NCBI RefSeq assembly: GCF_002854065.1
Contig: NZ_CP024147.1
Source: Escherichia coli
Lineage (GTDB): Bacteria > Pseudomonadota > Gammaproteobacteria > Enterobacterales > Enterobacteriaceae
DNA: 64,000 nucleotides
Reading direction: 5' to 3' (one strand)
Each line of letters opens with the position of its first letter. Position 1 is the stretch's first letter. Shown here in pieces: positions 1 to 25,780 of the stretch. Below the pieces are notes generated by a model. That model saw only the letters and a list, made by a program, of their open reading frames with translations, had not been told where the DNA came from and searched no databases. The translations under genes were made by a program, and so were the position numbers.

Positions 1-1525
1 TTTCACGCCCAGAGAAAGCAGCGTCAGCAGAATGACAATCGCTTTCTGTTCAAACCAGGAGAGCACCAGCGACAGCGGCAGATCGTTCACACCACAGCCC
101 AGTTTTTCTGCCAGCGTTACCGCCAGAATAATCGCTGAGTAAGCATCGTTACATTGACCTGCATCTACCAGACGCGGCAGACCTTCGATATCGCCAAACT
201 CAAGTTTGTTAAAGCGATATTTACCACAGGCGAGGGTCAGGATCAGGCAGTCATCCGGCACGCTGGTGGCGAAATCGGTGAAGTAGTGGCGCTCGCCGCG
301 TGCGCCGTCACAGCCACCAAGCAGGAAGATATGACGCAGTTTTTCACGGCTCACCAGATCAATCAGCGTATCCGCTGCGCCAAGCAGCGTCTGGCGGCCA
401 AAGCCCACGGTGATCAGGTGCGGAATTTCGCTGTACGGGAAGCCTGCCATTTGTTGCGCCTGGGCAATGACCGCAGAGAAATCTTCGCCATCCAGATGAC
501 GCACACCCGGCCAGCCAACGATGCTGCGGGTCCAGATACGATCGTCATAAGCGCCTACGGTTGGGTCGATGATGCAGTTCGAGGTCATCACGATGGGGCC
601 AGGGAAACGAGCGAATTCCACTTGCTGATTCTGCCAGCCGCTGCCGTAGTTACCGACCAGATGCTTGAATTTACGCAGCTCCGGGTAGCCATGCGCAGGC
701 AGCATTTCGCCGTGGGTGTAGACATTAACGCCCGTGCCTTCGGTCTGTTCCAGCAGGTTGTAGAGATCTTTGAGATCGTGACCGGAAATCAGGATGCATT
801 TACCCGCCGTCGCTTTGACGTTGACCTGGGTTGGCGTCGGGTGACCGTATTTACTGGTTTCGCCTGCATCCAGAATGCTCATCACTTTGAAGTTCATCTG
901 GCCGATTTCCATTGAACACTCAAGAAGCGCGTTCATATCGGCAGGCCAGGTCCCCAGCCACGCCATGATTTTATGGTACTGGGCATAAATATCATTGTCG
1001 TATTGACCGAGAACGTGTGCGTGTTCCATATAGGCCGCCGCACCTTTCAGACCATACAGGCACAGCAGACGCAGGCCGAGAATGTTTTCGCCAATCGCCG
1101 CTTTATCTTTGTTAGGGGTAAATTCTGCTGCCTGACGTTGCAGTTCGCCGAGATCGTCGCTCACCAGTTGCAGGTCAGCCATCGGGTTATCGACGCGGGC
1201 GTTGGCATCTACAGTCAGGCATTGTGCTTTCAGCGCCTCGCGCAAGGCAATCGCTTCACGAGCGTAGCCGACAATACGCGGAGAATCGAAGTTAACGTTG
1301 GTCAGGGTTGAGAAAAAGGCACGTGGCGCGAAGCTGTCGACATCGTGGTTGATGATGCCGTATTCACGCGCTTTTACCGCCCAGGCAGAAAGCCCTTGCA
1401 GCGCCGCGATGAGTAAATCCTGAAGGTCAGAGGTTTCCGCCGTTTTACCACACATCCCCTGCGCGTATGAGCAGCCGTTTCCTGCCGGAGTACGGATAGT
1501 TTGTTCACATTGCACACAAAACATG
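1..1525 (-). CDS. hcp: hybrid-cluster protein (hydroxylamine reductase), 3' end truncated by window edge
   Basis: Minus-strand translation from the ATG at 1525 reads [27 protein letters not shown]..., matching Hcp as I recall it; the plus-strand ORFs 154..915 and 973..1311 are antisense artefacts. Confidence 0.9.
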
Positions 1526-1620
1526 ATCACACCTTTTAAAGTTATATTTAATATACATGTTTAAGGTTAAGACGCTTAACGCGGGGATAAAAGGGATTTT
1601 TCATGCAACTTTAAGGGAGA

Positions 1621-1634
1621 TTGATTTAGCGCAA
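1621..1634 (-). promoter_or_regulatory. putative FNR-type site upstream of hcp
   Basis: TTGATTTAGCGCAA, a partial match to the TTGAT-N4-ATCAA FNR consensus about 100 bp upstream of the hcp start; hcp is known to be anaerobically induced. Confidence 0.4.
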
Positions 1635-1667
1635 TTTTGGCGGCAGGGATCTACCGCCAGAGAGGTA

Positions 1668-2567
1668 TTACGCAGAGAAAAAGGCGATGAGGATCGGCAC
1701 TAACAGGCTAAGAATAAAACCGTGAACAATTGCCGCCGGGACCATATCCAGCCCGCCAGTACGTTGAAGAACGGGCAGGGTGAAATCCATCGACGTCGCA
1801 CCGCATAAGCCCAGTGCGGTAGAGCGGCTGCGGCGAATCAGCCCAGGGATCAACATAATTGCAATCAGCTCACGGGCCAGATCATTAAAAAACGCCGCGC
1901 TCCCGATTACCGGACCAAAAGATTCGGTCAATAAAATACCGGAAAGAGAATACCAGCCGAAACCAGAGGCCATTGCCAGCGCGGTATTGATGGGTAGATC
2001 AAGAATAAAGGCGTTAATTAAACCACCAATTAATGAACTGGCAACCACCACCACGGCGACAATCATTCCCCGGCGATTAAGGACAATCTGCTTTAAGGTC
2101 ATGCCATTATTGCGCAACTGAATACCGACGAGGAAAAGTAGCAGAATTAACGTGTATTCACTGGCTTCGGTCGCGTGTTGTAAGAAAGCCAGTCCACTCA
2201 GGCCAATGGCAAAACCAATCACTACTACGCCGCACAGTTTTAGCGACTCAAGCGCCATCGCAATACGCGACGGGAGTTTTTCTTGCTGATGGTGGTTGCG
2301 CCACGGCAGACCGCGCTCCAGCCATATAAGGGCGGCAATATTACACAGTAAAATAACGGTAATACTGACGGCAGAATAATGCAGAATCGCCAACAGGTTA
2401 CTGGCGAGGTTATCGAGAAACGCCAGACTGATACCCATAAAAAAGAGAATAAGGTAAACCATCCAGCTTAATAGCTGATTAATAACTTTTAACGCAGCTT
2501 GTTGGCGAAGCGGAATGAGGTAACCCACAATCAGGGGAACCAGAATGATTAACAGCCCAGAAAACAT
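1668..2567 (-). CDS. lysO: lysine exporter LysO (YbjE), inner-membrane protein
   Basis: 299-aa ORF, strongly hydrophobic, starting MFSGLLIILVPLIVGYLIPL; matches YbjE/LysO by recall and position. Confidence 0.85.
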   Translation of the reverse strand: MFSGLLIILVPLIVGYLIPLRQQAALKVINQLLSWMVYLILFFMGISLAFLDNLASNLLAILHYSAVSITVILLCNIAALIWLERGLPWRNHHQQEKLPSRIAMALESLKLCGVVVIGFAIGLSGLAFLQHATEASEYTLILLLFLVGIQLRNNGMTLKQIVLNRRGMIVAVVVVASSLIGGLINAFILDLPINTALAMASGFGWYSLSGILLTESFGPVIGSAAFFNDLARELIAIMLIPGLIRRSRSTALGLCGATSMDFTLPVLQRTGGLDMVPAAIVHGFILSLLVPILIAFFSA

Positions 2568-2761
2568 GAAAACCCAGCCCTTGCAAAGAAAGAAGTCGAA
2601 ATGCGCGATGACACACTACTGAAAGCGGAAGGACGAGTAAAGTTGCAATTAAAAGGAAATGTTATGCATCAGAGGGGGATTTTTAATTCTATATGAGTGT
2701 TTAGCATTGTTGCGCTCCTTTCATGTGCAATGCCATATAAAGCCACTGGCGCAGGGAGCGC

Positions 2762-2919
2762 GCAGGGGGCGGCCAGTCGCCGCCGCCCCCTGCACCCCCG
2801 GGCTCTGGCGAACAAAATCGCCGCTGCGCGGTACCTTCAGCTTATCCCCTTCGGCTACCGGGTCGGGCGCGAGGTAACGTCCTGTAAGACGCGCCCTCAG
2901 CCCACATCCATGTGGGCTG
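2762..2919. repeat. GC-rich palindromic intergenic element (two perfect inverted repeats)
   Basis: GCAGGGGGCGGC-N8-GCCGCCCCCTGC at 2762..2793 and CAGCCCACAT-CC-ATGTGGGCTG at 2898..2919, in a stretch far more GC-rich than the flanking DNA; possibly a dispersed REP/boxC-like repeat. Confidence 0.3.
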
Positions 2920-3359
2920 CCCCGGCCTTCAGGGAACGCCTCGGCGATTTTGACGCCACCAACATCCGTGCGGTTTGTAACGTCGAAGATAAAACAACCA
3001 GGGCAGATAAAATGCCAATGCTAATTAATTACGTTTTTCCAGCAGGGTCCGGTAAATCAGACCACCGATAATGCCGCCGACAATTGGCACCACCCAGAAG
3101 AACCACAGTTGTTCTAATGCCCAGCCGCCCTGGAAGATGGCAACCGCGGTGCTGCGCGCCGGGTTAACAGAAGTGTTAGTCACCGGAATACTGATTAAGT
3201 GAATCAGGGTTAAGGCCAGACCAATAGCGATCGGCGCAAAACCTGCCGGAGCGAATTTGTCGGTTGCGCCGTGGATCACCAACAGGAAACCTGCACTCAA
3301 TACCAGTTCAACTACCAGCGCGGAAAGCATGGAATAACCGCCTGGTGAATGCTCGCCAT

Positions 3360-3368
3360 AACCGTTAG
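3360..3368. repeat. IS1 target-site duplication (left copy, AACCGTTAG)
   Basis: A 9-bp direct repeat AACCGTTAG immediately flanks both IS1 ends (3360..3368 and 4137..4145). Confidence 0.85.
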
Positions 3369-3423
3369 GGTGATGCTGCCAACTTACTGATTTAGTGTAT
3401 GATGGTGTTTTTGAGGTGCTCCA

Positions 3424-3699
3424 GTGGCTTCTGTTTCTATCAGCTGTCCCTCCTGTTCAGCTACTGACGGGGTGGTGCGTAACGGCAAAAGCACTGCCGG
3501 ACATCAGCGCTATCTCTGCTCTCACTGCCGTAAAACATGGCAACTGCAGTTCACTTACACCGCTTCTCAACCCGGTACGCACCAGAAAATCATTGATATG
3601 GCCATGAATGGCGTTGGATGCCGGGCAACCGCCCGCATTATGGGCGTTGGCCTCAACACGATTTTCCGCCATTTAAAAAACTCAGGCCGCAGTCGGTAA
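3424..3699 (+). CDS. insA: IS1 InsA (transposition inhibitor / N-terminal part of InsAB')
   Basis: 91-aa [46 protein letters not shown]... matches canonical IS1 InsA. Confidence 0.95.
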
Positions 3700-4121
3700 C
3701 CTCGCGCATACAGCCGGGCAGTGACGTCATCGTCTGCGCGGAAATGGACGAACAGTGGGGATACGTCGGGGCTAAATCGAGCCAGCGCTGGCTGTTTTAC
3801 GCGTATGACAGGCTCCGGAAGACGGTTGTTGCGCACGTATTCGGTGAACGCACTATGGCGACGCTGGGGCGTCTTATGAGCCTGCTGTCACCCTTTGACG
3901 TGGTGATATGGATGACGGATGGCTGGCCGCTGTATGAATCCCGCCTGAAGGGAAAGCTGCACGTAATCAGCAAGCGATATACGCAGCGAATTGAGCGGCA
4001 TAACCTGAATCTGAGGCAGCACCTGGCACGGCTGGGACGGAAGTCGCTGTCGTTCTCAAAATCGGTGGAGCTGCATGACAAAGTCATCGGGCATTATCTG
4101 AACATAAAACACTATCAATAA
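3618..4121 (+). CDS. insB: IS1 InsB reading frame (expressed as InsAB' transposase by -1 frameshift)
   Basis: 167-aa frame ...[64 protein letters not shown]... matches IS1 InsB; it overlaps the insA 3' end in the -1 frame. Confidence 0.9.
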
Positions 4122-4136
4122 GTTGGAGTCATTACC

Positions 4137-4145
4137 AACCGTTAG
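4137..4145. repeat. IS1 target-site duplication (right copy, AACCGTTAG)
   Basis: Identical 9 bp to 3360..3368. Confidence 0.85.
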
Positions 4146-4922
4146 AAGCAAAACCGCTGGCTGCCGCGTCAAAACCCGTTTTACCACTGGCAATTAAATA
4201 CAGCAGCGCCGCTGCAACAATACCGCCGACAACCTGGGCAATTACGTAGCCAACGACTTCTTTTGCCGGAAAACGTCCGCCAGCCCATAAACCAATAGTG
4301 ACCGCCGGGTTAAAATGACCACCAGAAATATGACCAACAGCGAAGGCCATCGTCAGAACGGTCAAACCGAATGCCAGCGCCACGCCGGCAAAACCAATGC
4401 CTAATTCCGGGAAGCCTGCGGCCAGTACAGCACTACCACAGCCACCAAAAACAAGCCAGAAAGTACCAAAACATTCAGCTGCTAATTTTCTGAACATATC
4501 CACCTCAATTAAAAATTGACCCTGTGAAAAATATGGTCGTTTTATAGGGTCGTCGTAAAAAAGTGACGACGGAAATAATGCGCGGCTATTTTAAAAACGA
4601 AGGCGAGTCATTCACCAGATAAATAAATCCAGTAAATTTGATTTAGGGCAACAGCGGGTTGCCCCATATAGTCATTTGTCTGATTGACAGTGTAGTGCAA
4701 GCAAAAGATTTAATCCTTTAGGCGTAATAAAAAATAATTTATCATGCTAATTATTTGATTTTGTTGTTTTTGCAGACTTATCAGCAAGAGGGAGTATAAC
4801 GCGATTATTCGCTCATTTTTCAGACATTTGCCATGCTTAAATGTGATGTCATCACGTATTAGCAAGGCCTTTCCCGTTATACTGCCAGCGTAAAGGATAA
4901 GTCACATATTTCTGGAGGGGAT

Positions 4923-6581
4923 ATGATTCTTGAGCGCGTTGAAATTGTGGGTTTTCGCGGTATCAACCGTTTGTCGTTGATGCTGGAACAAAACAACGTC
5001 CTGATTGGGGAGAACGCGTGGGGTAAATCCAGCTTGCTGGACGCCTTAACCCTGCTGCTATCGCCAGAATCAGATCTCTACCATTTTGAGCGCGACGATT
5101 TCTGGTTCCCGCCGGGAGATATCAACGGGCGAGAACATCATCTGCATATTATTTTGACCTTCCGCGAATCGCTGCCAGGCCGACATCGGGTACGCCGTTA
5201 TCGGCCGCTGGAAGCGTGCTGGACGCCATGCACCGATGGCTATCACCGTATTTTTTATCGTCTGGAAGGGGAGAGTGCGGAAGACGGCAGCGTGATGACA
5301 CTGCGCAGTTTTCTCGATAAAGACGGACATCCGATTGATGTTGAGGATATTAACGATCAGGCACGCCATCTGGTGCGTTTAATGCCGGTGCTGCGCTTGC
5401 GTGATGCCCGTTTTATGCGCCGTATTCGTAACGGCACGGTGCCAAATGTCCCCAATGTGGAAGTCACCGCGCGCCAGCTCGATTTCCTCGCCCGTGAGTT
5501 GTCCTCACATCCGCAAAATCTCTCTGATGGACAGATTCGTCAGGGACTTTCCGCAATGGTACAGCTGCTTGAGCATTATTTCTCTGAGCAGGGGGCCGGA
5601 CAGGCGCGATATCGTTTAATGCGGCGGCGAGCCAGCAATGAGCAACGAAGCTGGCGCTATCTGGATATCATCAACCGGATGATTGACCGACCTGGAGGGC
5701 GCTCGTATCGGGTTATTTTGCTCGGCCTGTTTGCTACTTTATTGCAGGCAAAAGGCACATTGCGACTGGATAAAGACGCCCGTCCATTGTTGCTGATCGA
5801 AGATCCAGAAACCCGTTTACACCCCATTATGCTTTCAGTTGCCTGGCATCTGTTGAATCTTTTGCCTTTACAACGTATTGCTACCACCAACTCTGGCGAG
5901 CTGCTTTCGTTAACTCCAGTGGAACATGTTTGCCGCCTGGTGCGTGAATCTTCTCGTGTTGCCGCCTGGCGTCTGGGGCCAAGTGGCTTGAGCACCGAAG
6001 ACAGCCGCCGCATCTCTTTTCACATTCGTTTTAATCGTCCGTCATCGCTGTTTGCTCGCTGCTGGTTGCTGGTGGAAGGGGAAACGGAAACCTGGGTTAT
6101 CAATGAACTGGCGCGTCAGTGCGGACATCATTTTGATGCCGAAGGGATCAAGGTCATTGAGTTTGCCCAGTCCGGGCTAAAGCCACTGGTTAAATTTGCC
6201 CGGCGAATGGGGATTGAATGGCATGTACTGGTCGATGGCGATGAAGCAGGGAAGAAATATGCCGCTACGGTACGCAGCCTGTTGAATAATGATCGGGAAG
6301 CCGAACGAGAACATTTAACGGCGTTACCGGCGCTGGATATGGAACATTTTATGTATCGCCAGGGATTTTCCGATGTGTTCCACCGCGTGGCGCAAATCCC
6401 GGAAAATGTACCGATGAATCTGCGCAAAATTATCTCGAAAGCGATCCATCGCTCTTCCAAACCCGATCTTGCCATTGAAGTGGCAATGGAGGCCGGACGT
6501 CGTGGTGTGGACTCCGTACCGACGCTGCTGAAAAAAATGTTCTCACGCGTGCTGTGGCTGGCGCGCGGTCGCGCGGATTAA
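4923..6581 (+). CDS. ybjD: OLD-family ATP-dependent endonuclease homolog (ABC-type ATPase N-domain plus TOPRIM C-domain)
   Basis: 552-aa ORF; Walker A GENAWGKSS, Walker B-like LLLIEDPE, C-terminal TOPRIM motifs LLVEGETE and HVLVDGDEAG; matches YbjD by recall. Confidence 0.85.
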   Translation: MILERVEIVGFRGINRLSLMLEQNNVLIGENAWGKSSLLDALTLLLSPESDLYHFERDDFWFPPGDINGREHHLHIILTFRESLPGRHRVRRYRPLEACWTPCTDGYHRIFYRLEGESAEDGSVMTLRSFLDKDGHPIDVEDINDQARHLVRLMPVLRLRDARFMRRIRNGTVPNVPNVEVTARQLDFLARELSSHPQNLSDGQIRQGLSAMVQLLEHYFSEQGAGQARYRLMRRRASNEQRSWRYLDIINRMIDRPGGRSYRVILLGLFATLLQAKGTLRLDKDARPLLLIEDPETRLHPIMLSVAWHLLNLLPLQRIATTNSGELLSLTPVEHVCRLVRESSRVAAWRLGPSGLSTEDSRRISFHIRFNRPSSLFARCWLLVEGETETWVINELARQCGHHFDAEGIKVIEFAQSGLKPLVKFARRMGIEWHVLVDGDEAGKKYAATVRSLLNNDREAEREHLTALPALDMEHFMYRQGFSDVFHRVAQIPENVPMNLRKIISKAIHRSSKPDLAIEVAMEAGRRGVDSVPTLLKKMFSRVLWLARGRAD

Positions 6582-7570
6582 CCGCGAAACATCGTGGCCA
6601 TTTGTGGCTGAATAGCGTCGAGCATCTCATAGCGCCGACGGTATTCAGCCCGTTTTTTACTGGCGATTTCGGCAATCTCTTTTCGTGCTATCTGTGCTGG
6701 AAGGCGGTAATGGCGTTCAGCATCACATACGCCGCCAACCGATTCCCAGAAAGCGTTGTAATCGGCATGGATCTTGCCTTCTTTATCGCGATAACGCAGG
6801 CTGCGGTAAATATGCGTTTCATTGCTGACGGCAATAATCTGCTCTACCTGCAAACGTTGGGCAAACAGACAGGCCGCTTCCATCACGAGGCGTTTGGGAA
6901 ATAGCCCGTGGCAGGCTTTCGTCGCATTCTGGATTTCCTGATGTGGAATTTCCCATTTTGCGCCTTGCAGTCCACCAATAAACATCGTTCTTTTCCCCTG
7001 ATATTCACACAGGGTAAACGTGATTTCTGCCAGAGGAATACCTTCGCTGTTGCGGAACAGGATTGTGCTGTCACCTTCTTTATCCATTGAGATCATCATG
7101 GTCAGCTCAAGCGTGAACTGCTCGCCGTTTTTGCCTTCCAACTTCGCCAGTTGCAGCCCGGGGGTATTCAAATATAAGCTGAATTCTTCCGCCGACATAC
7201 ACCCGCGGAGTAACGCATAATGGTAACGTAACGCCTCCAGCAATTGCTTACGGCTAAGATTCGCCGCAAGGTAAGGGCGATGCAGACGTACAGGCAGTCG
7301 CGGCTGGCGCGTTAACAATACATTGAGATTAGGCCAGTGGGAAAGTTCGTTCATCCACTCAACGCTTAAACGCGGCATAATCAACGAGCGCAGCAAAAAT
7401 TTCTGGCGAAAACTACGGCGATGCCAGAATTTACCCGGCCGACACTGTCCACGTGCCAGACTAAGAAAAAGTGACAGGCTGCTGAGAGATTCAGATGGCG
7501 TAAAGGTCCGTTCAGTTAGCTGCGACATATTCATGAAATCAATGGTTATACATGACGTCGATTTCACCAT
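6578..7570 (-). CDS. ybjX: VirK/DUF535-family protein YbjX
   Basis: 330-aa minus-strand ORF, convergent with ybjD and overlapping its stop by 4 bp; the sequence matches YbjX by recall. Confidence 0.8.
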   Translation of the reverse strand: MVKSTSCITIDFMNMSQLTERTFTPSESLSSLSLFLSLARGQCRPGKFWHRRSFRQKFLLRSLIMPRLSVEWMNELSHWPNLNVLLTRQPRLPVRLHRPYLAANLSRKQLLEALRYHYALLRGCMSAEEFSLYLNTPGLQLAKLEGKNGEQFTLELTMMISMDKEGDSTILFRNSEGIPLAEITFTLCEYQGKRTMFIGGLQGAKWEIPHQEIQNATKACHGLFPKRLVMEAACLFAQRLQVEQIIAVSNETHIYRSLRYRDKEGKIHADYNAFWESVGGVCDAERHYRLPAQIARKEIAEIASKKRAEYRRRYEMLDAIQPQMATMFRG

Positions 7571-7684
7571 TGCGTATCTTAACCAAACATCAATAGTGTG
7601 ATTACTAACGTAAATTTTAGGGTTTTGTTGATATTTCGTTGAAGTTAATGACCCGGATTGGCATATGGAGTATTCAGAATATTT

Positions 7685-8800
7685 ATGAAAAAGCGGAAAA
7701 CCGTGAAGAAGCGTTACGTTATTGCGCTGGTGATAGTCATCGCCGGACTGATTACGTTATGGAGAATTCTTAACGCACCCGTGCCGACTTATCAGACACT
7801 GATTGTGCGCCCCGGTGATTTACAGCAAAGCGTGCTGGCGACCGGAAAGCTGGACGCGCTGCGTAAGGTTGATGTGGGCGCGCAGGTCAGCGGTCAGTTG
7901 AAAACACTGTCGGTGGCGATTGGCGATAAAGTAAAAAAAGACCAGCTTTTAGGGGTCATTGATCCTGAACAGGCTGAAAACCAGATCAAGGAGGTCGAAG
8001 CAACGCTGATGGAGCTACGCGCGCAGCGGCAGCAGGCGGAAGCGGAGCTGAAACTGGCGCGGGTGACGTATTCCCGTCAGCAACGTCTGGCACAAACGCA
8101 GGCGGTTTCACAGCAGGATCTCGACACCGCCGCGACGGAGATGGCTGTGAAACAGGCGCAAATTGGCACCATTGACGCGCAAATCAAGCGCAATCAGGCT
8201 TCTCTCGATACGGCTAAAACCAATCTCGATTACACTCGCATCGTTGCCCCGATGGCCGGGGAAGTCACGCAAATCACCACTCTGCAAGGCCAGACGGTGA
8301 TTGCCGCACAACAAGCACCGAACATTCTGACGCTGGCAGATATGAGCACCATGCTGGTAAAAGCGCAGGTTTCTGAAGCGGATGTAATCCACCTGAAGCC
8401 GGGGCAAAAAGCCTGGTTTACGGTACTTGGCGATCCACTGACGCGCTACGAGGGGCAAATCAAGGATGTACTACCGACGCCGGAAAAGGTTAACGACGCT
8501 ATTTTCTATTACGCCCGTTTTGAAGTCCCCAACCCCAATGGTTTGCTGCGGCTGGATATGACTGCGCAAGTGCATATTCAGCTCACCGATGTGAAAAATG
8601 TGCTGACGATCCCTCTGTCGGCGTTAGGCGATCCGGTTGGCGATAATCGTTATAAAGTCAAATTGTTGCGTAATGGTGAAACACGCGAGCGTGAAGTGAC
8701 GATTGGCGCACGTAACGATACCGATGTTGAGATTGTCAAAGGGCTGGAAGCGGGCGATGAAGTGGTGATTGGTGAGGCCAAACCAGGAGCTGCACAATGA
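7685..8800 (+). CDS. macA: macrolide export membrane-fusion protein MacA
   Basis: Start chosen at [16 protein letters not shown] (371 aa), with a membrane anchor and coiled-coil/HlyD-like sequence; its stop overlaps the macB start. Confidence 0.9.
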
Positions 8801-10743
8801 CACCCTTGCTCGAATTAAAGGATATTCGTCGCAGCTATCCTGCCGGTGATGAGCAGGTTGAGGTGCTGAAGGGCATCACCCTCGATATTTATGCCGGTGA
8901 GATGGTAGCGATTGTTGGCGCTTCGGGTTCCGGTAAATCAACCCTGATGAATATTCTCGGCTGTCTGGATAAGGCCACCAGCGGCACCTATCGCGTCGCC
9001 GGTCAGGATGTTGCCACACTGGACGCCGATGCGCTGGCGCAACTACGCCGCGAGCATTTCGGCTTTATTTTCCAGCGTTACCATTTGCTTTCGCATTTAA
9101 CCGCCGAGCAGAACGTTGAAGTACCCGCCGTCTATGCTGGTCTTGAGCGGAAACAGCGGCTGCTTCGCGCCCAGGAGTTGCTGCAACGACTGGGGCTGGA
9201 AGACCGTACAGAGTATTATCCGGCACAGCTTTCGGGTGGTCAGCAACAGCGCGTTAGCATCGCGCGGGCATTGATGAACGGCGGTCAGGTAATTCTTGCC
9301 GATGAACCAACCGGCGCACTGGACAGCCATTCTGGCGAAGAGGTGATGGCGATCCTGCATCAGCTGCGCGATCGCGGACATACGGTGATTATCGTCACCC
9401 ACGATCCGCAGGTCGCTGCTCAGGCCGAGCGGGTGATCGAAATTCGCGACGGCGAAATTGTGCGCAATCCTCCCGCCATTGAAAAAGTGAATGTTGCTGG
9501 CGGGACGGAACCTGTTGTCAACACGGTGTCTGGCTGGCGGCAGTTTGTCAGCGGTTTTAACGAGGCGCTGACGATGGCATGGCGGGCGCTGGCAGCGAAT
9601 AAAATGCGTACTTTACTGACCATGCTGGGGATTATAATCGGTATTGCGTCGGTGGTTTCCATTGTCGTGGTGGGCGACGCCGCCAAACAAATGGTGTTGG
9701 CGGATATTCGTTCTATTGGTACGAATACTATTGACGTCTACCCCGGGAAAGATTTTGGCGATGGCGATCCGCAATATCAGCAGGCGCTGAAGTACGACGA
9801 CTTAATCGCCATCCAAAAACAACCGTGGGTCGCCTCAGCCACACCTGCCGTCTCGCAAAACCTGCGCCTGCGTTATAACAATATTGATGTTGCTGCCAGT
9901 GCCAATGGCGTGAGCGGCGATTATTTTAATGTCTATGGCATGACCTTCAGTGAAGGAAACACCTTTAATCAGGAACAGCTGAACGGTCGTGCGCAGGTCG
10001 TGGTTCTCGACAGTAATACTCGCCGCCAGCTTTTCCCCCATAAAGCAGATGTGGTTGGCGAGGTGATTCTGGTCGGCAATATGCCCGCCAGAGTCATTGG
10101 TGTGGCGGAAGAAAAACAGTCGATGTTTGGTAGCAGTAAAGTGCTGCGTGTCTGGCTACCTTACAGCACGATGTCCGGGCGAGTTATGGGCCAGTCGTGG
10201 CTGAACTCCATTACTGTCAGGGTGAAAGAAGGATTTGACAGCGCCGAGGCGGAACAGCAACTCACGCGTTTACTTTCACTGCGCCACGGTAAGAAGGATT
10301 TCTTTACCTGGAACATGGACGGCGTCTTGAAAACCGTTGAAAAGACCACACGTACTTTACAACTGTTTCTGACGCTGGTGGCGGTGATTTCGCTGGTAGT
10401 GGGCGGTATTGGTGTAATGAATATTATGCTGGTGTCAGTGACCGAGCGGACGCGGGAAATTGGCATTCGCATGGCTGTAGGTGCGCGAGCAAGCGATGTT
10501 TTGCAACAGTTCCTGATCGAAGCCGTACTGGTTTGCCTGGTTGGTGGCGCGTTGGGAATAACACTGTCACTGTTAATTGCTTTCACCTTGCAGCTTTTCT
10601 TACCCGGCTGGGAGATTGGTTTTTCACCGTTGGCACTGCTGCTGGCGTTTCTCTGCTCGACGGCCACCGGGATTTTATTTGGCTGGTTACCCGCACGAAA
10701 TGCGGCACGACTGGATCCAGTAGATGCTCTGGCACGAGAGTAA
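8797..10743 (+). CDS. macB: macrolide export ABC transporter ATPase/permease MacB
   Basis: 648 aa; N-terminal ABC ATPase ([35 protein letters not shown]) followed by an FtsX-like permease domain. Confidence 0.92.
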
Positions 10744-10754
10744 TTTTTGAGATA

Positions 10755-10785
10755 AAAATGCCAGCCGATCGGGCTGGCATTTTGC
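10755..10785. terminator. bidirectional rho-independent terminator between macB and cspD
   Basis: ATGCCAGCC-GATCG-GGCTGGCAT hairpin flanked by A-run and T-run on both sides. Confidence 0.6.
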
Positions 10786-10815
10786 CTTTAGGATGTACAC
10801 AATGAGACAGAAGAG

Positions 10816-11040
10816 CTATGCGACTGCCGCTTCTACTTCGACGGGCACAATAACACTGGCGTGATTGCCTTTTGGCCCCTGGTGGACATCAAACTGAACG
10901 GATTGTCCAGCTTTTAGCGTTCTGTAACCATCCATCTGAATGGTGGAATAATGAGCGAAAATATCTTCGCCGCCGCCTTCAGGGCAGATGAAACCAAACC
11001 CTTTGGCATTGTTGAACCACTTAACAGTACCCTTTTCCAT
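10816..11040 (-). CDS. cspD: cold-shock-domain protein CspD (stationary-phase replication inhibitor)
   Basis: MEKGTVKWFNNAKGFGFICPEGGGEDIFAHYSTIQMDGYRTLKAGQSVQFDVHQGPKGNHASVIVPVE (74 aa from the ATG at 11040). Confidence 0.92.
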   Translation of the reverse strand: MEKGTVKWFNNAKGFGFICPEGGGEDIFAHYSTIQMDGYRTLKAGQSVQFDVHQGPKGNHASVIVPVEVEAAVA

Positions 11041-11362
11041 GCTTCGACATCCTTCGCAAATCTTATACAAGTAAGATGGAATAAACCGGGGTCAGAGAGG
11101 GGGCTGTTCAAAACCTCGCCAACTCTAGAAATACAATTTAGAGAATTAGGGCGAGCCGTCAAGCATTTGACAGGGGACAAGGGGCAGGTATGAATCAAAA
11201 ATTTGAAGCAGTTAACGCTATTGACAGGAATGTGACAGATGTCGCTGATGCCAACGATAGATGATAGTTATCTATCATGTGGAGTAGATTGGTCAGGCAA
11301 ATAAGCTCTTGTCAGCGGCAGGGCGTTCTGCCGATAACCGTAACCGAAGATGATAACTGACA

Positions 11363-11683
11363 ATGGGTAAAACGAACGACTGGCTGGACTTTGATCAACT
11401 GGCGGAAGAAAAAGTTCGCGACGCGCTAAAACCGCCATCTATGTATAAAGTGATATTAGTCAATGATGATTACACTCCGATGGAGTTTGTTATTGACGTG
11501 TTACAAAAATTCTTTTCTTATGATGTAGAACGTGCAACGCAATTGATGCTCGCTGTTCACTACCAGGGGAAGGCCATTTGCGGAGTCTTTACCGCCGAGG
11601 TTGCAGAAACCAAAGTGGCGATGGTGAACAAGTACGCGAGGGAGAATGAGCATCCATTGCTGTGTACGCTAGAAAAAGCCTGA
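11363..11683 (+). CDS. clpS: ClpA adaptor ClpS
   Basis: 106 aa, [47 protein letters not shown]... Confidence 0.95.
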
Positions 11684-11713
11684 ATGCAGGCATAAAAATT
11701 GGGGGAGGTGCCT

Positions 11714-13990
11714 ATGCTCAATCAAGAACTGGAACTCAGTTTAAATATGGCTTTCGCCAGAGCGCGCGAGCACCGTCATGAGTTTATGACCGTCGAGCAC
11801 TTGTTACTGGCGCTGCTCAGTAACCCATCTGCCCGGGAGGCGCTGGAAGCGTGTTCTGTGGATTTGGTTGCGCTCCGTCAGGAACTGGAAGCCTTTATTG
11901 AACAAACCACACCCGTTCTGCCTGCCAGTGAAGAGGAGCGCGACACACAGCCGACGCTGAGTTTTCAGCGTGTACTGCAACGTGCGGTCTTCCATGTCCA
12001 GTCCTCCGGTCGCAATGAGGTTACCGGTGCAAACGTTCTGGTCGCTATCTTTAGCGAACAGGAGTCGCAGGCGGCATATCTGTTGCGTAAACATGAAGTC
12101 AGCCGTCTCGATGTGGTGAACTTTATCTCTCATGGCACGCGTAAAGACGAGCCGACACAGTCTTCTGATCCTGGCAGCCAGCCAAACAGCGAAGAACAAG
12201 CTGGTGGGGAGGAACGTATGGAGAATTTCACGACGAACCTGAATCAGCTTGCGCGCGTGGGCGGAATCGACCCACTGATTGGTCGTGAGAAGGAGCTTGA
12301 GCGTGCTATTCAGGTTCTCTGCCGTCGCCGTAAAAACAACCCGCTGCTGGTGGGGGAATCTGGTGTTGGTAAAACTGCGATTGCGGAAGGTCTTGCCTGG
12401 CGAATTGTTCAGGGCGATGTGCCGGAAGTGATGGCTGACTGTACAATTTACTCACTCGATATCGGTTCTCTGTTAGCGGGCACAAAATATCGCGGCGACT
12501 TTGAAAAACGTTTTAAAGCGTTGCTCAAGCAGCTGGAGCAGGACACTAACAGCATCCTGTTTATTGATGAGATCCACACCATTATCGGTGCGGGGGCAGC
12601 GTCTGGTGGTCAGGTCGATGCGGCTAACCTAATCAAACCGTTGCTCTCCAGCGGTAAAATTCGTGTAATTGGTTCGACAACCTATCAGGAGTTCAGCAAC
12701 ATTTTCGAGAAAGACCGTGCTCTGGCGCGTCGCTTCCAGAAAATTGATATTACTGAACCGTCGATCGAAGAAACTGTTCAAATCATCAATGGCCTGAAAC
12801 CGAAGTATGAAGCACACCACGACGTGCGTTATACCGCAAAAGCGGTGCGTGCGGCGGTAGAGCTGGCGGTGAAATACATTAACGATCGTCATCTGCCGGA
12901 TAAAGCCATTGATGTTATCGACGAAGCGGGCGCTCGCGCACGCCTGATGCCGGTAAGCAAACGCAAGAAAACCGTTAATGTGGCGGATATTGAGTCCGTG
13001 GTGGCCCGTATTGCACGCATTCCAGAGAAGAGTGTTTCTCAGAGTGATCGTGATACCCTGAAAAACCTCGGCGATCGCCTGAAAATGCTGGTCTTCGGTC
13101 AGGATAAAGCCATTGAGGCGCTGACTGAAGCCATTAAGATGGCGCGTGCAGGTTTAGGTCACGAACATAAACCGGTCGGTTCGTTCCTGTTTGCCGGTCC
13201 TACCGGGGTCGGGAAAACAGAGGTGACGGTACAGCTTTCGAAAGCTTTGGGCATTGAGCTTCTGCGCTTTGATATGTCCGAGTATATGGAACGCCATACC
13301 GTCAGCCGTCTGATTGGTGCGCCTCCGGGATACGTTGGTTTTGATCAGGGCGGTTTGCTGACTGATGCGGTCATCAAGCATCCACATGCGGTGCTGCTGC
13401 TGGACGAAATCGAGAAAGCGCATCCGGACGTGTTCAATATTCTGTTGCAGGTGATGGACAACGGTACGCTGACCGATAACAACGGACGCAAAGCGGACTT
13501 CCGTAACGTGGTGCTGGTGATGACCACTAACGCCGGGGTACGGGAAACTGAGCGCAAATCCATTGGTCTTATCCACCAGGATAACAGCACCGATGCGATG
13601 GAAGAGATCAAGAAGATCTTTACACCGGAATTCCGTAACCGTCTCGACAACATTATCTGGTTCGATCATCTGTCAACTGACGTGATCCATCAGGTGGTGG
13701 ATAAATTCATCGTCGAGTTGCAGGTTCAGCTGGATCAGAAAGGTGTTTCTCTGGAAGTGAGCCAGGAAGCGCGTAACTGGCTGGCCGAGAAAGGTTACGA
13801 CCGGGCAATGGGCGCACGTCCGATGGCGCGTGTCATCCAGGACAACCTGAAAAAACCGCTTGCCAACGAACTGCTGTTTGGTTCGCTGGTGGACGGCGGT
13901 CAGGTCACCGTCGCGCTGGATAAAGAGAAAAATGAGCTGACTTACGGATTCCAGAGTGCACAAAAGCACAAGGCGGAAGCAGCGCATTAA
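11714..13990 (+). CDS. clpA: ATP-dependent Clp protease ATPase subunit ClpA
   Basis: 758 aa from [19 protein letters not shown]; two AAA+ modules (GESGVGKT and GPTGVGKT Walker A motifs). Confidence 0.95.
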
Positions 13991-14013
13991 TCTGATTGTC
14001 AGGTAGGTTGGTG

Positions 14014-14052
14014 AAGTCCGTAATCTCGAAAGAGGTTACGGACTTTTTATTT
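14014..14052 (+). terminator. clpA rho-independent terminator
   Basis: AGTCCGTAATCTC-GAAA-GAGGTTACGGACT hairpin followed by TTTTTATTTAT. Confidence 0.7.
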
Positions 14053-14202
14053 ATGGGGTGGAGGAGGTTCAGACCCTTTTTTTGATGATGATGGTAACTT
14101 GTTGATAATTAGTGCTGCTGGAAGGTAAGGATAAAAAAGGGTGCTGCGGGAGAATGGGATGGTTTTGCTTTATTAACAACGGGCTAAACGTGTAGTATTT
14201 GA

Positions 14203-14290
14203 ATTCACTGCCGTACAGGCAGCTTAGAAAGTCAACCGAAAGAAAAACTCGATTTTTATACCGTTCACTGCTGTACAGGTAGATAAAATG
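14203..14290 (+). CRISPR. orphan type I-F CRISPR remnant (2 repeats, 1 spacer), no adjacent cas genes
   Basis: Repeat 1 ATTCACTGCCGTACAGGCAGCTTAGAAA (14203..14230), 32-bp spacer GTCAACCGAAAGAAAAACTCGATTTTTATACC (14231..14262), degenerate repeat 2 GTTCACTGCTGTACAGGTAGATAAAATG (14263..14290); repeat 1 matches the E. coli I-F repeat consensus as recalled. Confidence 0.8.
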
Positions 14291-14333
14291 CGAAAAAAAA
14301 GCTCGCACTTTCGTACGAGCTCTTCTTTAAATA

Positions 14334-14421
14334 TGGCGGTGAGGGGGGGATTCGAACCCCCGATACGTTGCCGTATACACACTTTCCAGGCGTGCTCCTT
14401 CAGCCACTCGGACACCTCACC
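14334..14421 (-). tRNA. serW: tRNA-Ser (GGA anticodon)
   Basis: Minus-strand sequence GGTGAGGTGTCCGAGTGGCTGAAGGAGCACGCCTGGAAAGTGTGTATACGGCAACGTATCGGGGGTTCGAATCCCCCCCTCACCGCCA: 88 nt, long variable arm, encoded CCA. Confidence 0.92.
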
Positions 14422-21673: not shown

Positions 21674-24600
21674 TTGAGCCAGGAATACACTGAAGACAAA
21701 GAAGTCACATTGACAAAGTTAAGTAGCGGCCGCCGCCTTCTGGAGGCGTTGCTGATCCTTATTGTCCTGTTTGCCGTCTGGTTGATGGCTGCCTTACTAA
21801 GCTTTAACCCTTCGGACCCCAGCTGGTCGCAAACGGCCTGGCATGAACCTATCCATAATTTAGGTGGGATGCCCGGTGCGTGGTTGGCAGATACGCTGTT
21901 CTTTATTTTTGGCGTGATGGCTTACACCATTCCCGTCATTATTGTCGGCGGTTGTTGGTTTGCCTGGCGTCATCAGTCCAGCGACGAATACATTGATTAT
22001 TTTGCCGTTTCGCTACGCATCATTGGCGTTTTGGCGCTCATCCTTACCTCCTGTGGTCTGGCGGCAATCAACGCTGACGATATCTGGTATTTTGCCTCCG
22101 GTGGCGTCATTGGCAGCTTACTAAGCACTACGCTACAACCACTGCTACACAGTAGCGGGGGAACTATTGCGCTGCTCTGCGTTTGGGCAGCGGGCCTGAC
22201 GTTGTTCACCGGTTGGTCATGGGTGACCATTGCTGAAAAACTCGGCGGCTGGATTTTAAACATTCTCACCTTCGCCAGTAATCGTACCCGTCGCGATGAT
22301 ACCTGGGTCGATGAAGATGAGTATGAAGACGACGAAGAGTATGAAGATGAAAATCACGGCAAACAGCATGAATCACGCCGTGCCCGTATTCTTCGCGGCG
22401 CGCTAGCGCGTCGTAAACGGTTGGCGGAAAAATTCATTAATCCGATGGGGCGGCAAACAGACGCTGCGTTGTTCTCCGGTAAGCGGATGGATGATGACGA
22501 AGAGATTACCTACACTGCACGCGGTGTGGCTGCCGACCCGGACGACGTCCTATTTTCGGGCAATCGTGCAACGCAGCCAGAATATGACGAATACGATCCA
22601 TTATTAAACGGTGCGCCAATTACCGAACCTGTCGCTGTAGCAGCTGCTGCTACCACGGCGACGCAAAGCTGGGCTGCACCGGTTGAACCTGTGACTCAGA
22701 CGCCACCTGTTGCCTCTGTTGATGTTCCACCTGCGCAACCTACAGTAGCCTGGCAGCCTGTACCGGGTCCACAAACGGGAGAGCCGGTTATTGCTCCTGC
22801 ACCGGAAGGTTACCCACAGCAGTCACAATATGCGCAGCCTGCAGTGCAATATAATGAGCCGCTGCAACAACCAGTACAGCCGCAGCAGCCGTATTATGCA
22901 CCTGCAGCTGAACAACCTGCGCAACAACCTTACTACGCTCCTGCGGCGGAACAACCTGTTCAGCAACCGTATTACGCAACTGCGCCGGAACAGCCTGCGC
23001 AACAGCCGTATTATGCCCCTGCGCCAGAACAACCGGTGGCAGGTAACGCCTGGCAAGCCGAAGAGCAGCAATCCACTTTTGCTCCACAGTCTACATACCA
23101 GACTGAGCAAACTTATCAGCAGCCAGCCGCTCAGGAGCCGTTGTACCAACAGCCGCAACCTGTTGAACAGCAGCCTGTTGTGGAGCCTGAACCCGTTGTA
23201 GAAGAGACAAAACCCGCGCGTCCGCCGCTTTACTACTTTGAAGAAGTGGAAGAGAAGCGAGCCCGTGAACGTGAACAACTTGCGGCCTGGTATCAACCGA
23301 TTCCAGAACCGGTTAAAGAACCAGAACCGATCAAATCTTCGCTGAAAGCACCTTCTGTTGCAGCAGTACCTCCAGTAGAAGCCGCTGCCGCTGTTTCTCC
23401 GCTGGCATCTGGCGTGAAAAAAGCGACACTGGCGACGGGGGCTGCCGCAACCGTTGCCGCGCCAGTCTTCAGTCTGGCAAATAGCGGTGGACCGCGTCCG
23501 CAGGTCAAAGAGGGGATTGGCCCGCAGTTGCCACGACCGAAACGTATCCGCGTGCCAACTCGTCGTGAATTGGCGTCTTACGGTATTAAACTGCCCTCAC
23601 AGCGTGCGGCGGAAGAAAAAGCCCGTGAAGCCCAGCGCAATCAGTACGATTCTGGCGATCAGTACAACGATGATGAAATCGATGCGATGCAGCAGGATGA
23701 ACTGGCACGTCAGTTCGCCCAGACACAGCAGCAACGCTATGGCGAACAGTATCAACATGATGTGCCCGTAAACGCAGAAGATGCAGATGCTGCGGCAGAG
23801 GCTGAACTGGCTCGTCAGTTTGCGCAAACTCAACAACAACGTTATTCCGGCGAACAACCGGCTGGGGCGAATCCGTTCTCGCTGGATGATTTTGAATTTT
23901 CGCCAATGAAAGCGTTGCTGGATGATGGTCCACACGAACCGTTGTTTACGCCAATTGTTGAACCTGTACAGCAGCCGCAACAACCGGTTGCACCGCAGCA
24001 GCAGTATCAGCAGCCACAACAGCCGGTTGCGCCACAGCAGCAATATCAGCAGCCGCAACAACCGGTTGCACCGCAGCAGCAATATCAGCAGCCGCAACAA
24101 CCGGTTGCACCGCAGCCGCAATATCAGCAGCCGCAACAGCCAGTTGCGCCGCAGCCGCAGTATCAGCAGCCACAACAATCGGCTGCACCACAGCAGCAAT
24201 ATCAGCAGCCGCAACAGCCAGTTGCGCCACAGCCGCAGGATACTCTGCTTCATCCGCTGTTGATGCGTAATGGCGACAGCCGTCCGTTGCATAAACCGAC
24301 GACGCCGCTGCCTTCTCTGGATTTGCTGACACCGCCGCCGAGCGAAGTGGAGCCGGTAGATACCTTTGCGCTTGAACAAATGGCTCGCCTGGTGGAAGCG
24401 CGTCTGGCTGATTTCCGTATTAAAGCCGATGTCGTCAATTACTCTCCGGGGCCGGTTATCACTCGCTTTGAACTTAACCTGGCACCGGGCGTAAAAGCGG
24501 CGCGCATTTCTAACTTGTCACGGGACCTTGCCCGTTCACTTTCGACGGTGGCGGTGCGTGTCGTTGAAGTTATTCCTGGCAAACCCTATGTAGGTCTGGA

Positions 24601-25780
24601 GTTACCGAATAAAAAACGACAAACCGTTTATCTGCGCGAAGTATTGGATAACGCCAAATTCCGCGATAATCCATCGCCATTAACCGTGGTGCTGGGTAAA
24701 GATATCGCCGGTGAGCCGGTGGTTGCCGATCTGGCGAAAATGCCGCACTTGTTGGTTGCGGGGACTACCGGTTCCGGTAAATCTGTCGGTGTGAACGCGA
24801 TGATCCTGAGCATGCTTTATAAAGCACAGCCAGAAGATGTGCGTTTCATCATGATCGACCCGAAAATGCTGGAGCTTTCGGTGTATGAAGGCATTCCGCA
24901 CCTGTTAACGGAAGTCGTTACTGATATGAAAGATGCCGCCAACGCGCTGCGCTGGTGTGTTAACGAGATGGAGCGTCGGTATAAACTGATGTCTGCGCTG
25001 GGTGTGCGTAATCTGGCGGGTTATAACGAAAAAATTGCTGAAGCCGATCGCATGATGCGTCCGATTCCAGACCCGTACTGGAAGCCGGGTGACAGTATGG
25101 ATGCCCAGCATCCGGTGCTGAAAAAAGAACCATACATTGTGGTGTTGGTTGACGAATTTGCCGACCTGATGATGACGGTAGGTAAAAAAGTGGAAGAGCT
25201 GATAGCACGTCTGGCGCAAAAAGCCCGTGCCGCGGGTATCCACCTCGTACTGGCAACTCAGCGTCCATCGGTTGATGTTATTACTGGTCTGATTAAAGCG
25301 AATATTCCGACCCGTATCGCCTTTACCGTATCCAGTAAGATTGACTCACGTACCATTCTTGATCAGGCTGGCGCGGAATCACTGCTGGGTATGGGGGATA
25401 TGCTCTACTCTGGGCCGAACTCCACGTTGCCGGTACGTGTCCATGGTGCTTTTGTTCGCGATCAGGAAGTTCATGCCGTGGTGCAGGACTGGAAAGCGCG
25501 TGGTCGCCCACAGTATGTTGATGGCATCACCTCCGACAGCGAAAGCGAAGGTGGTGCGGGTGGTTTCGATGGCGCTGAAGAACTGGATCCGTTGTTCGAT
25601 CAGGCGGTGCAGTTTGTCACTGAAAAACGCAAAGCGTCAATTTCTGGCGTACAGCGTCAGTTCCGCATTGGTTATAACCGTGCAGCGCGTATTATCGAAC
25701 AGATGGAAGCGCAGGGAATTGTCAGCGAACAGGGGCACAACGGTAATCGTGAAGTGCTGGCCCCACCGCCGTTTGACTAA
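21674..25780 (+). CDS. ftsK: DNA translocase FtsK (apparent TTG start; 1368 aa)
   Basis: N-terminal membrane domain ([11 protein letters not shown]..., first codon TTG), long Pro/Gln-rich linker with tandem repeats, C-terminal motor (GTTGSGKS Walker A, gamma domain). Confidence 0.93.
22889..23040 (+). repeat. in-frame 39-bp tandem repeats in ftsK linker ([13 protein letters not shown] x4)
   Basis: Four successive near-identical 13-aa units ([13 protein letters not shown] / [13 protein letters not shown] variants) readable in the ORF translation. Confidence 0.8.
23969..24238 (+). repeat. in-frame 39-bp tandem repeats in ftsK linker ([13 protein letters not shown] x7)
   Basis: Seven near-identical units of CAGCAGCCGCAACAACCGGTTGCACCGCAGCAGCAATAT and variants; protein [13 protein letters not shown] repeated. 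Confidence 0.85.

Follow-up and report, generated by a model that had tools for sequence, protein, structure and literature searches.

The window, i.e., the complete 64,000-nucleotide stretch of Escherichia coli DNA analyzed here (contig NZ_CP024147.1 of assembly GCF_002854065.1), harbors the ftsK gene on the forward strand at positions 21674..25780, located between lrp and lolA. According to the list of open reading frames, the gene encodes 1368 amino acids plus a stop codon and begins with a TTG codon, representing the same start as in the K-12 annotation; its sequence is 100% identical to the annotated ftsK genes of strains 100416 and CUWW06. The gene order lrp-ftsK-lolA-rarA was found to be conserved in the annotations of K-12 and 19 other genomes, and the corresponding open reading frames of the window were recognized as Lrp, LolA, and RarA. 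Compared to strain 100416, the window is colinear only from position 14327 onward, and the genome of 100416 contains an additional island at a tRNA-Ser gene.

Within the deduced protein, Pfam searches identified the domains FtsK_4TM (PF13491, residues 20-191), FtsK_alpha (PF17854, residues 879-979), FtsK_SpoIIIE (PF01580, comprising the beta part and the P-loop, residues 987-1200), and FtsK_gamma (PF09397, residues 1303-1363), all of them far above the cut-off, and their occurrence in this order characterizes the gene product as a DNA translocase of the FtsK/SpoIIIE type. Residues 181-830 are rich in glutamine (15%), alanine (14%), and proline (14%). The FtsK linker has been described as unstructured and variable in length between species (PMC5357621; PMC3870252); moreover, FtsK depends on the linker for its normal activity, and contacts with FtsQ, L, I, and Z are made by portions of the linker, as reviewed in PMC5357621.

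Two separate in-frame arrays of 39-bp units, featuring four and seven copies, were detected in this linker, as had been noted in a preliminary description of the locus; both Tandem Repeats Finder and the codon register confirmed them, and the interval 22889..24238 given in that description corresponds exactly to the outer edges of the two arrays. Array 1 (22889..23041, forward strand; FtsK residues 406-456) consists of four 39-bp units encoding the 13-aa motif PYYAPAxEQPxQQ, the last unit being 36 bp long. Tandem Repeats Finder reported it at 22881-23034 with a period of 39 bp, 3.9 copies, 77% matches, and a score of 175, and its units share between 69% and 82% identity at the DNA level. Array 2 (23975..24238, forward strand; residues 768-855) is composed of six full 39-bp units encoding PQQPVAPQ(Q/P)QYQQ followed by a 30-bp partial unit (10 aa), and was reported at 23969-24237 (period of 39 bp, 6.9 copies, 86% matches, score of 398). 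Its units are between 73% and 97% identical in pairwise comparisons (88% on average), no two of them are the same, and the longest exact self-match at a period of 39 bp covers 43 bp. The former characterization of the seven-copy array as near-perfect at the DNA level was thus overstated.

In K-12 MG1655, ftsK is 3990 bp long and encodes 1329 aa. The excess of 39 aa in the window does correspond to exactly three repeat units, as previously suggested, and the alignment showed that 26 aa of it (two units) are missing from array 1 of K-12 and 13 aa (one unit) from array 2, the remainder of the two proteins being nearly identical. To place this difference in a broader context, units were counted in 20 E. 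coli alleles, which is the comparison that the preliminary description had proposed. Array 1 comprised 2, 3, 3.7, or 4 units and array 2 between 4 and 10 units, while the part outside of the arrays amounted to exactly 1229 aa in each of the 20 alleles, meaning that all length variation resides inside the arrays. All 20 alleles represent intact open reading frames, and the indels observed (39n, 12, 15, and 24 bp) are without exception multiples of three. The architecture of the window (4+7 units) is common and was encountered in approximately one quarter of the sampled complete genomes; population frequencies given here refer to rank-spaced samples of 40-60 entries drawn from a clinically biased genome collection rather than to a full census. 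In a sample of 60 genomes, array 1 variants with 2, 3, and 4 units accounted for about one third each. For array 2, 25 out of 60 complete genomes matched the window, 21 had one unit fewer, 3 had two fewer, and 1 had two more, the rest being other or unresolved forms. Since the same total FtsK length is produced by different array architectures, the length of the whole protein is of little use for assigning lineages; a check for a correlation between linker length and lineage had been suggested in the preliminary description.

Several observations bear on the direction of change in array 1. The first unit of the K-12 array is an exact hybrid of units w1 and w3 of the window, with the breakpoint falling within nucleotides 27-38, although this assignment depends on one base, the last of the unit, which, taken alone, could be explained by a point mutation. 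The units missing from K-12 (w2 and w3) have diverged too far to stem from a recent duplication. Synonymous divergence between array 1 units (pS of 0.69) far exceeds the value of about 0.08 found between phylogroups, indicating that the units are older than E. coli itself. Among the outgroups, 4 units each were counted in E. albertii and in a divergent Escherichia, and 5 in E. whittamii, outgroup counts being themselves variable (2-5 units). Hence, mainly due to the age of w2 and w3 and to the outgroup counts, array 1 of K-12 looks like a derivative of the four-unit form that arose by a 78-bp deletion. The longest exact run at a period of 78 bp in the window is the 11-bp sequence CCTGCGCAACA, present on the forward strand at 22916..22926 and again 78 bp downstream at 22994..23004; the junction of the K-12 hybrid unit falls inside this repeat, and the pair may have provided the breakpoint microhomology for the deletion leading to the two-unit array 1 of K-12 and O157. 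Array 1 variants with three units were found in three distinct forms, each of them originating from different junctions.

The unit map of array 2 in the window reads ABCDEF[30], and only one 39-mer type is shared with the map CPQMR of K-12, so that the difference of one unit between the two alleles does not represent a single step. On the backbone of the window, strain XJ34 retains ABCD and has lost EF, ETEC6335 carries ABCABCGEF with a duplicated block of 117 bp, and OkiPb01695 shows A-I-F, unit I being an exact hybrid of w2 and w5. A hybrid unit was likewise found in KV7, for which several parent pairs among the units of the window are possible, w5/w6 included. Gains or losses of pq or l units were moreover observed among UTI89, EC13, BEN2908, and N66, whose backbones are 0-1 SNP apart. 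Copy number was constant, with equal spans, among the laboratory derivatives of K-12 and among the isolates of O157:H7 that were sampled.

These results indicate that the term "expanded", as applied to the allele of the window in the preliminary description, resulted from the choice of K-12 as the reference: the 4+7 arrangement is among the commonest E. coli architectures, and for array 1 the polarity appears to be reversed, considering the hybrid unit of K-12, the old age of the missing units, and the four units of E. albertii. A single expansion by three units relative to K-12 was rejected in view of the 2+1 split, the putative K-12 deletion in array 1, and the single unit type shared between the array 2 maps. 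The proposal that copy number changes through slippage or unequal recombination was, by contrast, well supported by the hybrid units and block duplications in the unit maps.

Taken together, it is highly probable that the locus comprises two in-frame minisatellites in the linker, at which whole units or blocks are turned over by out-of-register pairing, and that the window carries a common allele. The arrays lie in the tether joining the N-terminal domain, which anchors the protein to the membrane and the divisome, to the C-terminal DNA-translocase motor. Units pairing out of register may give rise to replication slippage or to unequal exchange between sister strands or homologous copies, and each such event would delete or duplicate whole units or blocks, leaving hybrid units at the junction; the molecular pathway is expected to be either slippage or RecA-dependent exchange. 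Because the unit length is a multiple of three, gain or loss of units alters the length of the tether only, leaving the frame and the 1229 residues outside of the arrays as they are. The allele of the window is most probably longer than that of K-12 mainly through loss of two array 1 units in the K-12 lineage, with the rapid turnover of array 2 in all lineages as a presumed second cause. The length differences themselves are probably near-neutral. The allele swap that bears on this point was carried out in Salmonella: a two-unit ftsK indel exchanged between S. Enteritidis strains caused no change in the one phenotype tested (PMC6137255).

Adaptive tuning is considered unlikely. Under this hypothesis, the units would either serve as short linear motifs with a function of their own or determine a tether length that is critical, and copy number would be under selection and differ between lineages through its influence on contacts with the divisome or on how far the motor reaches. 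It would agree with the strong conservation of the unit peptides relative to synonymous change (pN/pS between units of 0.15 and 0.09), which indicates a constrained motif and leaves room for a copy-number effect, with the preservation of array 2 in one and the same position in Escherichia, Salmonella, and Citrobacter, as well as with the functional requirement for the linker and its contacts mentioned above. Copy number, however, ranges from 4.4 to 8.4 units among alleles with 0-1 backbone SNPs, different architectures yield equal total lengths, Klebsiella and Enterobacter manage without periodic units at the array 2 site, and the changes affect 13-78 aa within a linker of approximately 650 aa; the Salmonella swap points in the same direction. 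The narrower proposal that the 13-aa units are conserved short linear motifs whose number quantitatively adjusts the contacts of FtsK with the divisome or how far its motor reaches, lineage counts being adaptive, is suggested by the purifying selection on the peptide and the retention of array 2 in the three genera, and is likewise judged quite improbable. It is possible, if somewhat doubtful, that the difference between K-12 and the window mainly reflects allelic replacement by homologous recombination between lineages and not an in situ gain of three units. The nearly disjunct array 2 maps of the two alleles fit this explanation, as does strain Ecol_276, whose array 1 units A and B are identical to those of the window on a backbone 67 SNPs away. 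Clear unit events have nevertheless taken place in situ on the backbone of the window, and replacement is compatible with slippage, as imported alleles would themselves have arisen by gain and loss of units.

A technical origin of the unit count, caused by collapse or expansion of repeats during assembly, is very improbable. Arrays exceeding the read length can indeed be mis-assembled, and contigs ended inside the ftsK linker at 5 out of 62 orthologous loci in draft genomes. For the allele of the window, the risk of mis-assembly stressed in the preliminary description is nevertheless low, and an artefact was rejected: no two of the seven units in array 2 are alike, with 43 bp as the longest exact repeat, two independent complete genomes contain the identical 4107-bp gene and many more a colinear 4107-bp gene, and close relatives keep the unit order ABCD. 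The variation had also been called phase-like. Tandem repeats inside a coding region that vary in number among near-identical backbones are reminiscent of a contingency locus, at which units, switching in number rapidly and reversibly inside one clone, would alter the expression or the function of FtsK; this reading is almost certainly wrong. With a 39-bp unit and every indel in frame, an ON/OFF switch is impossible, the gene has been described as essential (PMC8627665), spans were equal in the sampled K-12 derivatives and O157:H7 isolates, and the Salmonella homologue exhibited three alleles and a Nei's D of 0.07 in 240 isolates (PMC2430564). Phase variation was therefore rejected on the basis of the frame (no frameshifting change in 20 alleles) and of the apparent stability of the sampled clones.

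The significance of the locus hardly extends beyond bookkeeping. Differences in ftsK length between E. coli genomes are to be expected and should be flagged neither as anomalies nor as pseudogenes. K-12 does not represent a neutral yardstick, its array 1 apparently carrying a derived 78-bp deletion, and total FtsK length is homoplasious, with phylogenetic signal residing in the unit maps only. If copy number did affect division or chromosome segregation, the locus would be of modest interest for the tuning of disordered tethers; nothing in the present data suggests so.

Variation of this kind in the length of the flexible linker is well known and ordinary among strains. The linker of the window resembles the proteobacterial FtsKL, a Pro/Gln-rich unstructured tether of about 650 aa connecting FtsKN to FtsKC. 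Compared to FtsKL in general, tandem 13-aa units have a narrow distribution: three genera, namely Escherichia, Salmonella, and Citrobacter, possess array 2, and array 1 was confined to Escherichia species among the orthologues examined, the linkers of Klebsiella and Enterobacter being PQ-rich and aperiodic at the array 2 site. PMC8627665 refers to a "variable PQ repeat region" of ftsK, which corresponds to the Salmonella VNTR treated below. Literature on the linker domain and its disorder yielded no account dealing specifically with the repeats of E. coli; the "39 bp" of PMC4853403 turned out to be a JUMPstart element and not a VNTR. According to the survey by Touzain et al. 2010 (PMC2884548), no other E. 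coli gene has as many small variable segments as ftsK, four of them being present in the species alignment and three within B2. These in-frame segments agree with the two arrays and the sub-unit indels seen here; unit maps and polarity, as provided by the present analysis, do not feature in the consulted passages of that survey.

Array 2 is the MLVA locus CVN001, a 39-bp VNTR of the generic E. coli scheme (Lindstedt et al. 2007, as used in PMC8143711, from which the primer sequences were taken). The forward primer AACCGGCTGGGGCGAATCC matched exactly at 23856..23874 on the forward strand (0 matches in 100 shuffles) and the reverse primer GGCGGCGGTGTCAGCAAATC exactly at 24320..24339 on the reverse strand. 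The primers bracket array 2 with a predicted amplicon of 484 bp, corresponding to allele 6 (6.00) when calculated as (product size - 250)/39. Computed in this way for 20 alleles, K-12 was assigned allele 5 (5.00) and the panel ranged from 3 to 9, with integers in 14 of the 20 and non-integer values due to 15- or 24-bp sub-unit indels in some B2-type and other alleles. In-silico CVN001 alleles can thus be read straight from assemblies. Primers, flanking position, 39-bp unit, and copy-number polymorphism of CVN001 are all found in array 2, and nothing substantive differs. The 39-bp VNTR in Salmonella ftsK, STTR7/SENTR2 (PMC2430564), is homologous to array 2 and agrees with it in its linker site just upstream of ..LIHPLLMR, its 39-bp/13-aa PQ unit, and its variable count; in S. 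enterica arizonae L063, for example, 13-aa PQ units are located between ..EPLFTP.. and ..LIHPLLMR. In contrast to the window, the Salmonella locus features a consensus and copy numbers specific to the species (S. Enteritidis having 9.3 units), and Salmonella ftsK lacks array 1, as no PYYAP units are present.

The ftsK gene of the window (21674–25780, plus strand, TTG start, 1368 codons) is flanked by lrp and lolA, and its product features the complete Pfam architecture (4TM, aa 20–191; alpha, 879–979; FtsK_SpoIIIE, 987–1200; gamma, 1303–1363). Within the linker, Tandem Repeats Finder located two arrays with a period of 39 bp, namely array 1 at 22881–23034 (3.9 copies, 77% matches, score 175) and array 2 at 23969–24237 (6.9 copies, 86% matches, score 398). 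In codon register, array 1 (PYYAP.. units) extends over 22889–23041 and array 2 over 23975–24238, the latter consisting of six full PQQPVAPQ(Q/P)QYQQ-type units and a 10-aa partial unit. The interval 22889–24238 named in the preliminary description equals the outer borders of both arrays; the observation is real and its location accurate. Array 2 units share a mean DNA identity of 88%, those of array 1 one of 76%. To call array 2 near-perfect at the DNA level was an overstatement, since all of its units are different and the longest exact period-39 match comprises 43 bp. The linker also contains a non-tandem 14-aa motif, present twice directly upstream of array 2 (23699–23740, aa 676–689, and 23804–23845, aa 711–724; 35 aa apart), and a 9-bp-period repeat, GAGTATGAA (3.2 copies, 22319–22347), coding for an acidic run near the linker start.

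The ftsK gene of K-12 MG1655, likewise starting with TTG, is 3990 bp long and encodes 1329 aa, in agreement with the length given in the preliminary description. Alignment of both proteins revealed a 26-aa gap in array 1 (four vs. two units) and a 13-aa gap in array 2 (seven vs. six units), the sequences being almost identical elsewhere. For array 1, the claim that the window is expanded was reversed by the analysis: the K-12 state is best read as a 78-bp deletion, as deduced from a hybrid unit, unit age, the 3-unit forms and the outgroups. In K-12 and O157, array 1 begins with an exact hybrid unit that joins the 5' part of the first to the 3' end of the third window unit (w1 and w3), with the breakpoint in nt 27–38, corresponding to the 11-bp exact repeat CCTGCGCAACA (22916–22926 and 22994–23004), the longest exact period-78 match of the array. 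Because the hybrid in K-12 rests on one diagnostic base, the polarity is argued mainly from unit age and outgroups. The two units absent from K-12 share 74–82% identity with neighbouring units, and between-unit synonymous divergence is 0.69, compared to approximately 0.08 between E. coli phylogroups; they therefore cannot be recent duplicates of K-12's own units. Moreover, three distinct 3-unit forms with different junctions (w3/w4, w2/w3 and w1/w2) were found, as expected from independent deletions of a 4-unit array. Among the outgroups, E. albertii and a divergent Escherichia possess four units and E. whittamii five; two cryptic-clade genomes carry two.

Dissection of 20 E. coli ftsK alleles revealed varying unit counts, with array 1 comprising 2, 3, 3.7 or 4 units and array 2 between 4 and 10. 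The non-array part encodes exactly 1229 aa in all 20 alleles, so that the whole length variation is confined to the two arrays. B2-type alleles, TOK-001 and KFu019 additionally show sub-unit indels of 15 or 24 bp in array 2. Total FtsK length is homoplasious, different architectures being equal in length: 1368 aa result from 4+7 units (arrays 1 and 2, respectively) in the window and Ecol_276 and from 3+8 in PEC395 and JNE12-007, 1342 aa from 4+5 in XJ34 and 2+7 in O157, and 1329 aa from 2+6 in K-12 and 4+4 in OkiPb01695. In a neighbour-joining tree built on the 3690-bp ftsK backbone, array 1 appeared mostly clade-specific, whereas array 2 varied across essentially identical backbones (UTI89, 6.4 units; BEN2908, 5.4; N66, 4.4; EC13, 8.4; likewise K-12, 6, and 23CRST009, 5; EC1908157, 9, and PEC395, 8), which is consistent with the respective unit identities. 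A correlation of linker length with lineage thus holds for array 1, but neither for array 2 nor for total length. In the complete genome of E. coli 2014C-4135, the lrp gene adjoining ftsK is annotated as frameshifted (pseudogene), which could be a genuine lesion or a sequencing error.

Unit maps, in which each distinct 39-mer received one letter and [30] denotes a 30-bp partial unit, indicate how array 2 may have changed. The window (ABCDEF[30]) and K-12 (CPQMR) have only one unit type in common; their one-unit difference is the net of several events and no single step. Among the nearest relatives of the window, XJ34 (ABCD[30]) lacks units E and F, and ETEC6335 (ABCABCGEF[30]) carries a duplication of the 117-bp block ABC. 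In the near relative KV7 (ABCDH[30]), unit H is a hybrid with several possible window-unit parent pairs, including w5/w6, and in OkiPb01695 (AIF[30]), unit I combines window units 2 and 5 as an exact hybrid (breakpoint nt 12–20). The B2 group maps differ likewise (UTI89, llOpqr; EC13, llOpqpqr; BEN2908, lOpqr; N66, llOs). In-register loss or duplication of units and blocks, together with hybrid junction units, represents the classical footprint of out-of-register pairing, which may have proceeded via replication slippage or via unequal sister-strand or homologous exchange; the sequence alone could be reconciled with either pathway.

To evaluate prevalence, 5,426 complete E. coli genomes were searched, of which all except one matched ftsK, with spans of 3951, 3966, 3990, 4005, 4029, 4044, 4068, 4095, 4107 and 4224 bp among the matches listed. 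Each array was queried with its unique flanks, and 60 genomes per array were listed; the proportions are approximate, because samples were rank-spaced rather than random and the genome collection is clinically biased. Array 1 contained four units in 20 genomes, three in 20 and two in 19. For array 2, 25 genomes had the window span and 21 the K-12 state with one unit fewer, followed by two fewer (three genomes), two more (one), sub-unit variants (four) and split alignments (six); in the three split-alignment genomes fetched, array 2 comprised at least eight units. A colinear, gap-free 4107-bp gene was present in 10 of 40 genomes sampled for the whole gene, so the window allele is common and nothing unusual.

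Starting at position 14327, the window shares 99.975% identity with strain 100416. The regions differing are window 1–14326 and 1–12652 of the 100416 locus; the window lacks that strain's island of approximately 12.6 kb upstream of the tRNA-Ser gene (about 14334–14421) and thus represents a close relative, another genome. The island comprises genes for a dynamin-family protein and a patatin-like phospholipase, the elements IS1 and ISSfl8, and a CbtA/YeeU toxin-antitoxin pair. Window 3365–4136 (772 bp, 98.6% identity to an IS1A-family element of 100416, 167-aa ORF at 3618–4121) is probably an IS1 copy.

Regarding the proposed proneness to mis-assembly, the risk is low for the window allele with k-mers above approximately 43, given the 43-bp longest match and the lack of identical units. 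Furthermore, the two complete and independent genomes of 100416 and CUWW06 carry an identical ftsK gene. General caution is nevertheless reasonable: 5 of 62 draft loci, all in other genera, end within the linker (Citrobacter youngae, Enterobacter asburiae, a Klebsiella MAG, Kluyvera georgiana and Raoultella ornithinolytica; loci L029, L059, L069, L070 and L071), suggesting that short-read assemblies break at linker repeats in some genera. The 206-bp scaffold109 of Limosilactobacillus vaginalis DSM 5837 codes for E. coli FtsK residues 291–358 with 100% identity and most likely reflects contamination of the assembly by E. coli. Phase-like variation found no support, as all indels are in-frame, array spans are constant across the sampled K-12 laboratory derivatives and O157:H7 isolates, and the Salmonella homologue is a VNTR of low diversity.

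A genome-collection scan detected units with a 13-aa periodicity at the site of array 2 in Escherichia species, Salmonella enterica arizonae and Citrobacter; in Klebsiella, Enterobacter, Kluyvera and others, the scanned site was PQ-rich but aperiodic, and array 1 was not found outside Escherichia. In E. albertii NBRC 107761, an 11-alanine run replaces the first part of array 2, and about two PQ units remain. The unit consensus is lineage-specific (e.g., ..YQP for two cryptic Escherichia clades and PAQPVAPQQHYQQ for the C. freundii group), which indicates concerted evolution of the array 2 site through repeated exchange. Low between-unit pN/pS values (0.15 for array 1, 0.09 for array 2) point to constraint on the peptide motif, and with low probability the units may act as functional motifs, their number being of importance; a strong copy-number effect is disfavoured, however, by the free variation seen on identical backbones and by Klebsiella and Enterobacter having no periodic units. 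Published work characterises the FtsK linker as an unstructured, Pro/Gln-rich region whose length differs between species and which FtsK requires for its normal activity; some of its parts contact FtsQ, L, I and Z (PMC5357621; PMC3870252). When an ftsK indel of two units was swapped between two S. Enteritidis strains, the single tested phenotype remained unchanged (PMC6137255).

The arrays are an ordinary polymorphism of a known kind that has already been described. Array 2 is the locus CVN001 of the generic E. coli MLVA scheme, whose published primers (PMC8143711) match the window at 23856–23874 (plus strand) and 24320–24339 (minus strand) with 0 mismatches each. The in-silico amplicon of 484 bp corresponds to allele (484−250)/39 = 6, compared to 5 for K-12 and 3–9 in the allele panel. 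Touzain et al. 2010 reported small variable segments to be most numerous in ftsK among E. coli genes (PMC2884548). The Salmonella VNTR STTR7/SENTR2, also 39 bp and located in ftsK, is homologous to array 2; it comprises 9.3 copies in S. Enteritidis, featured three alleles among 240 isolates (Nei's D 0.07; PMC2430564), and the Salmonella array has been termed the 'variable PQ repeat region' (PMC8627665).
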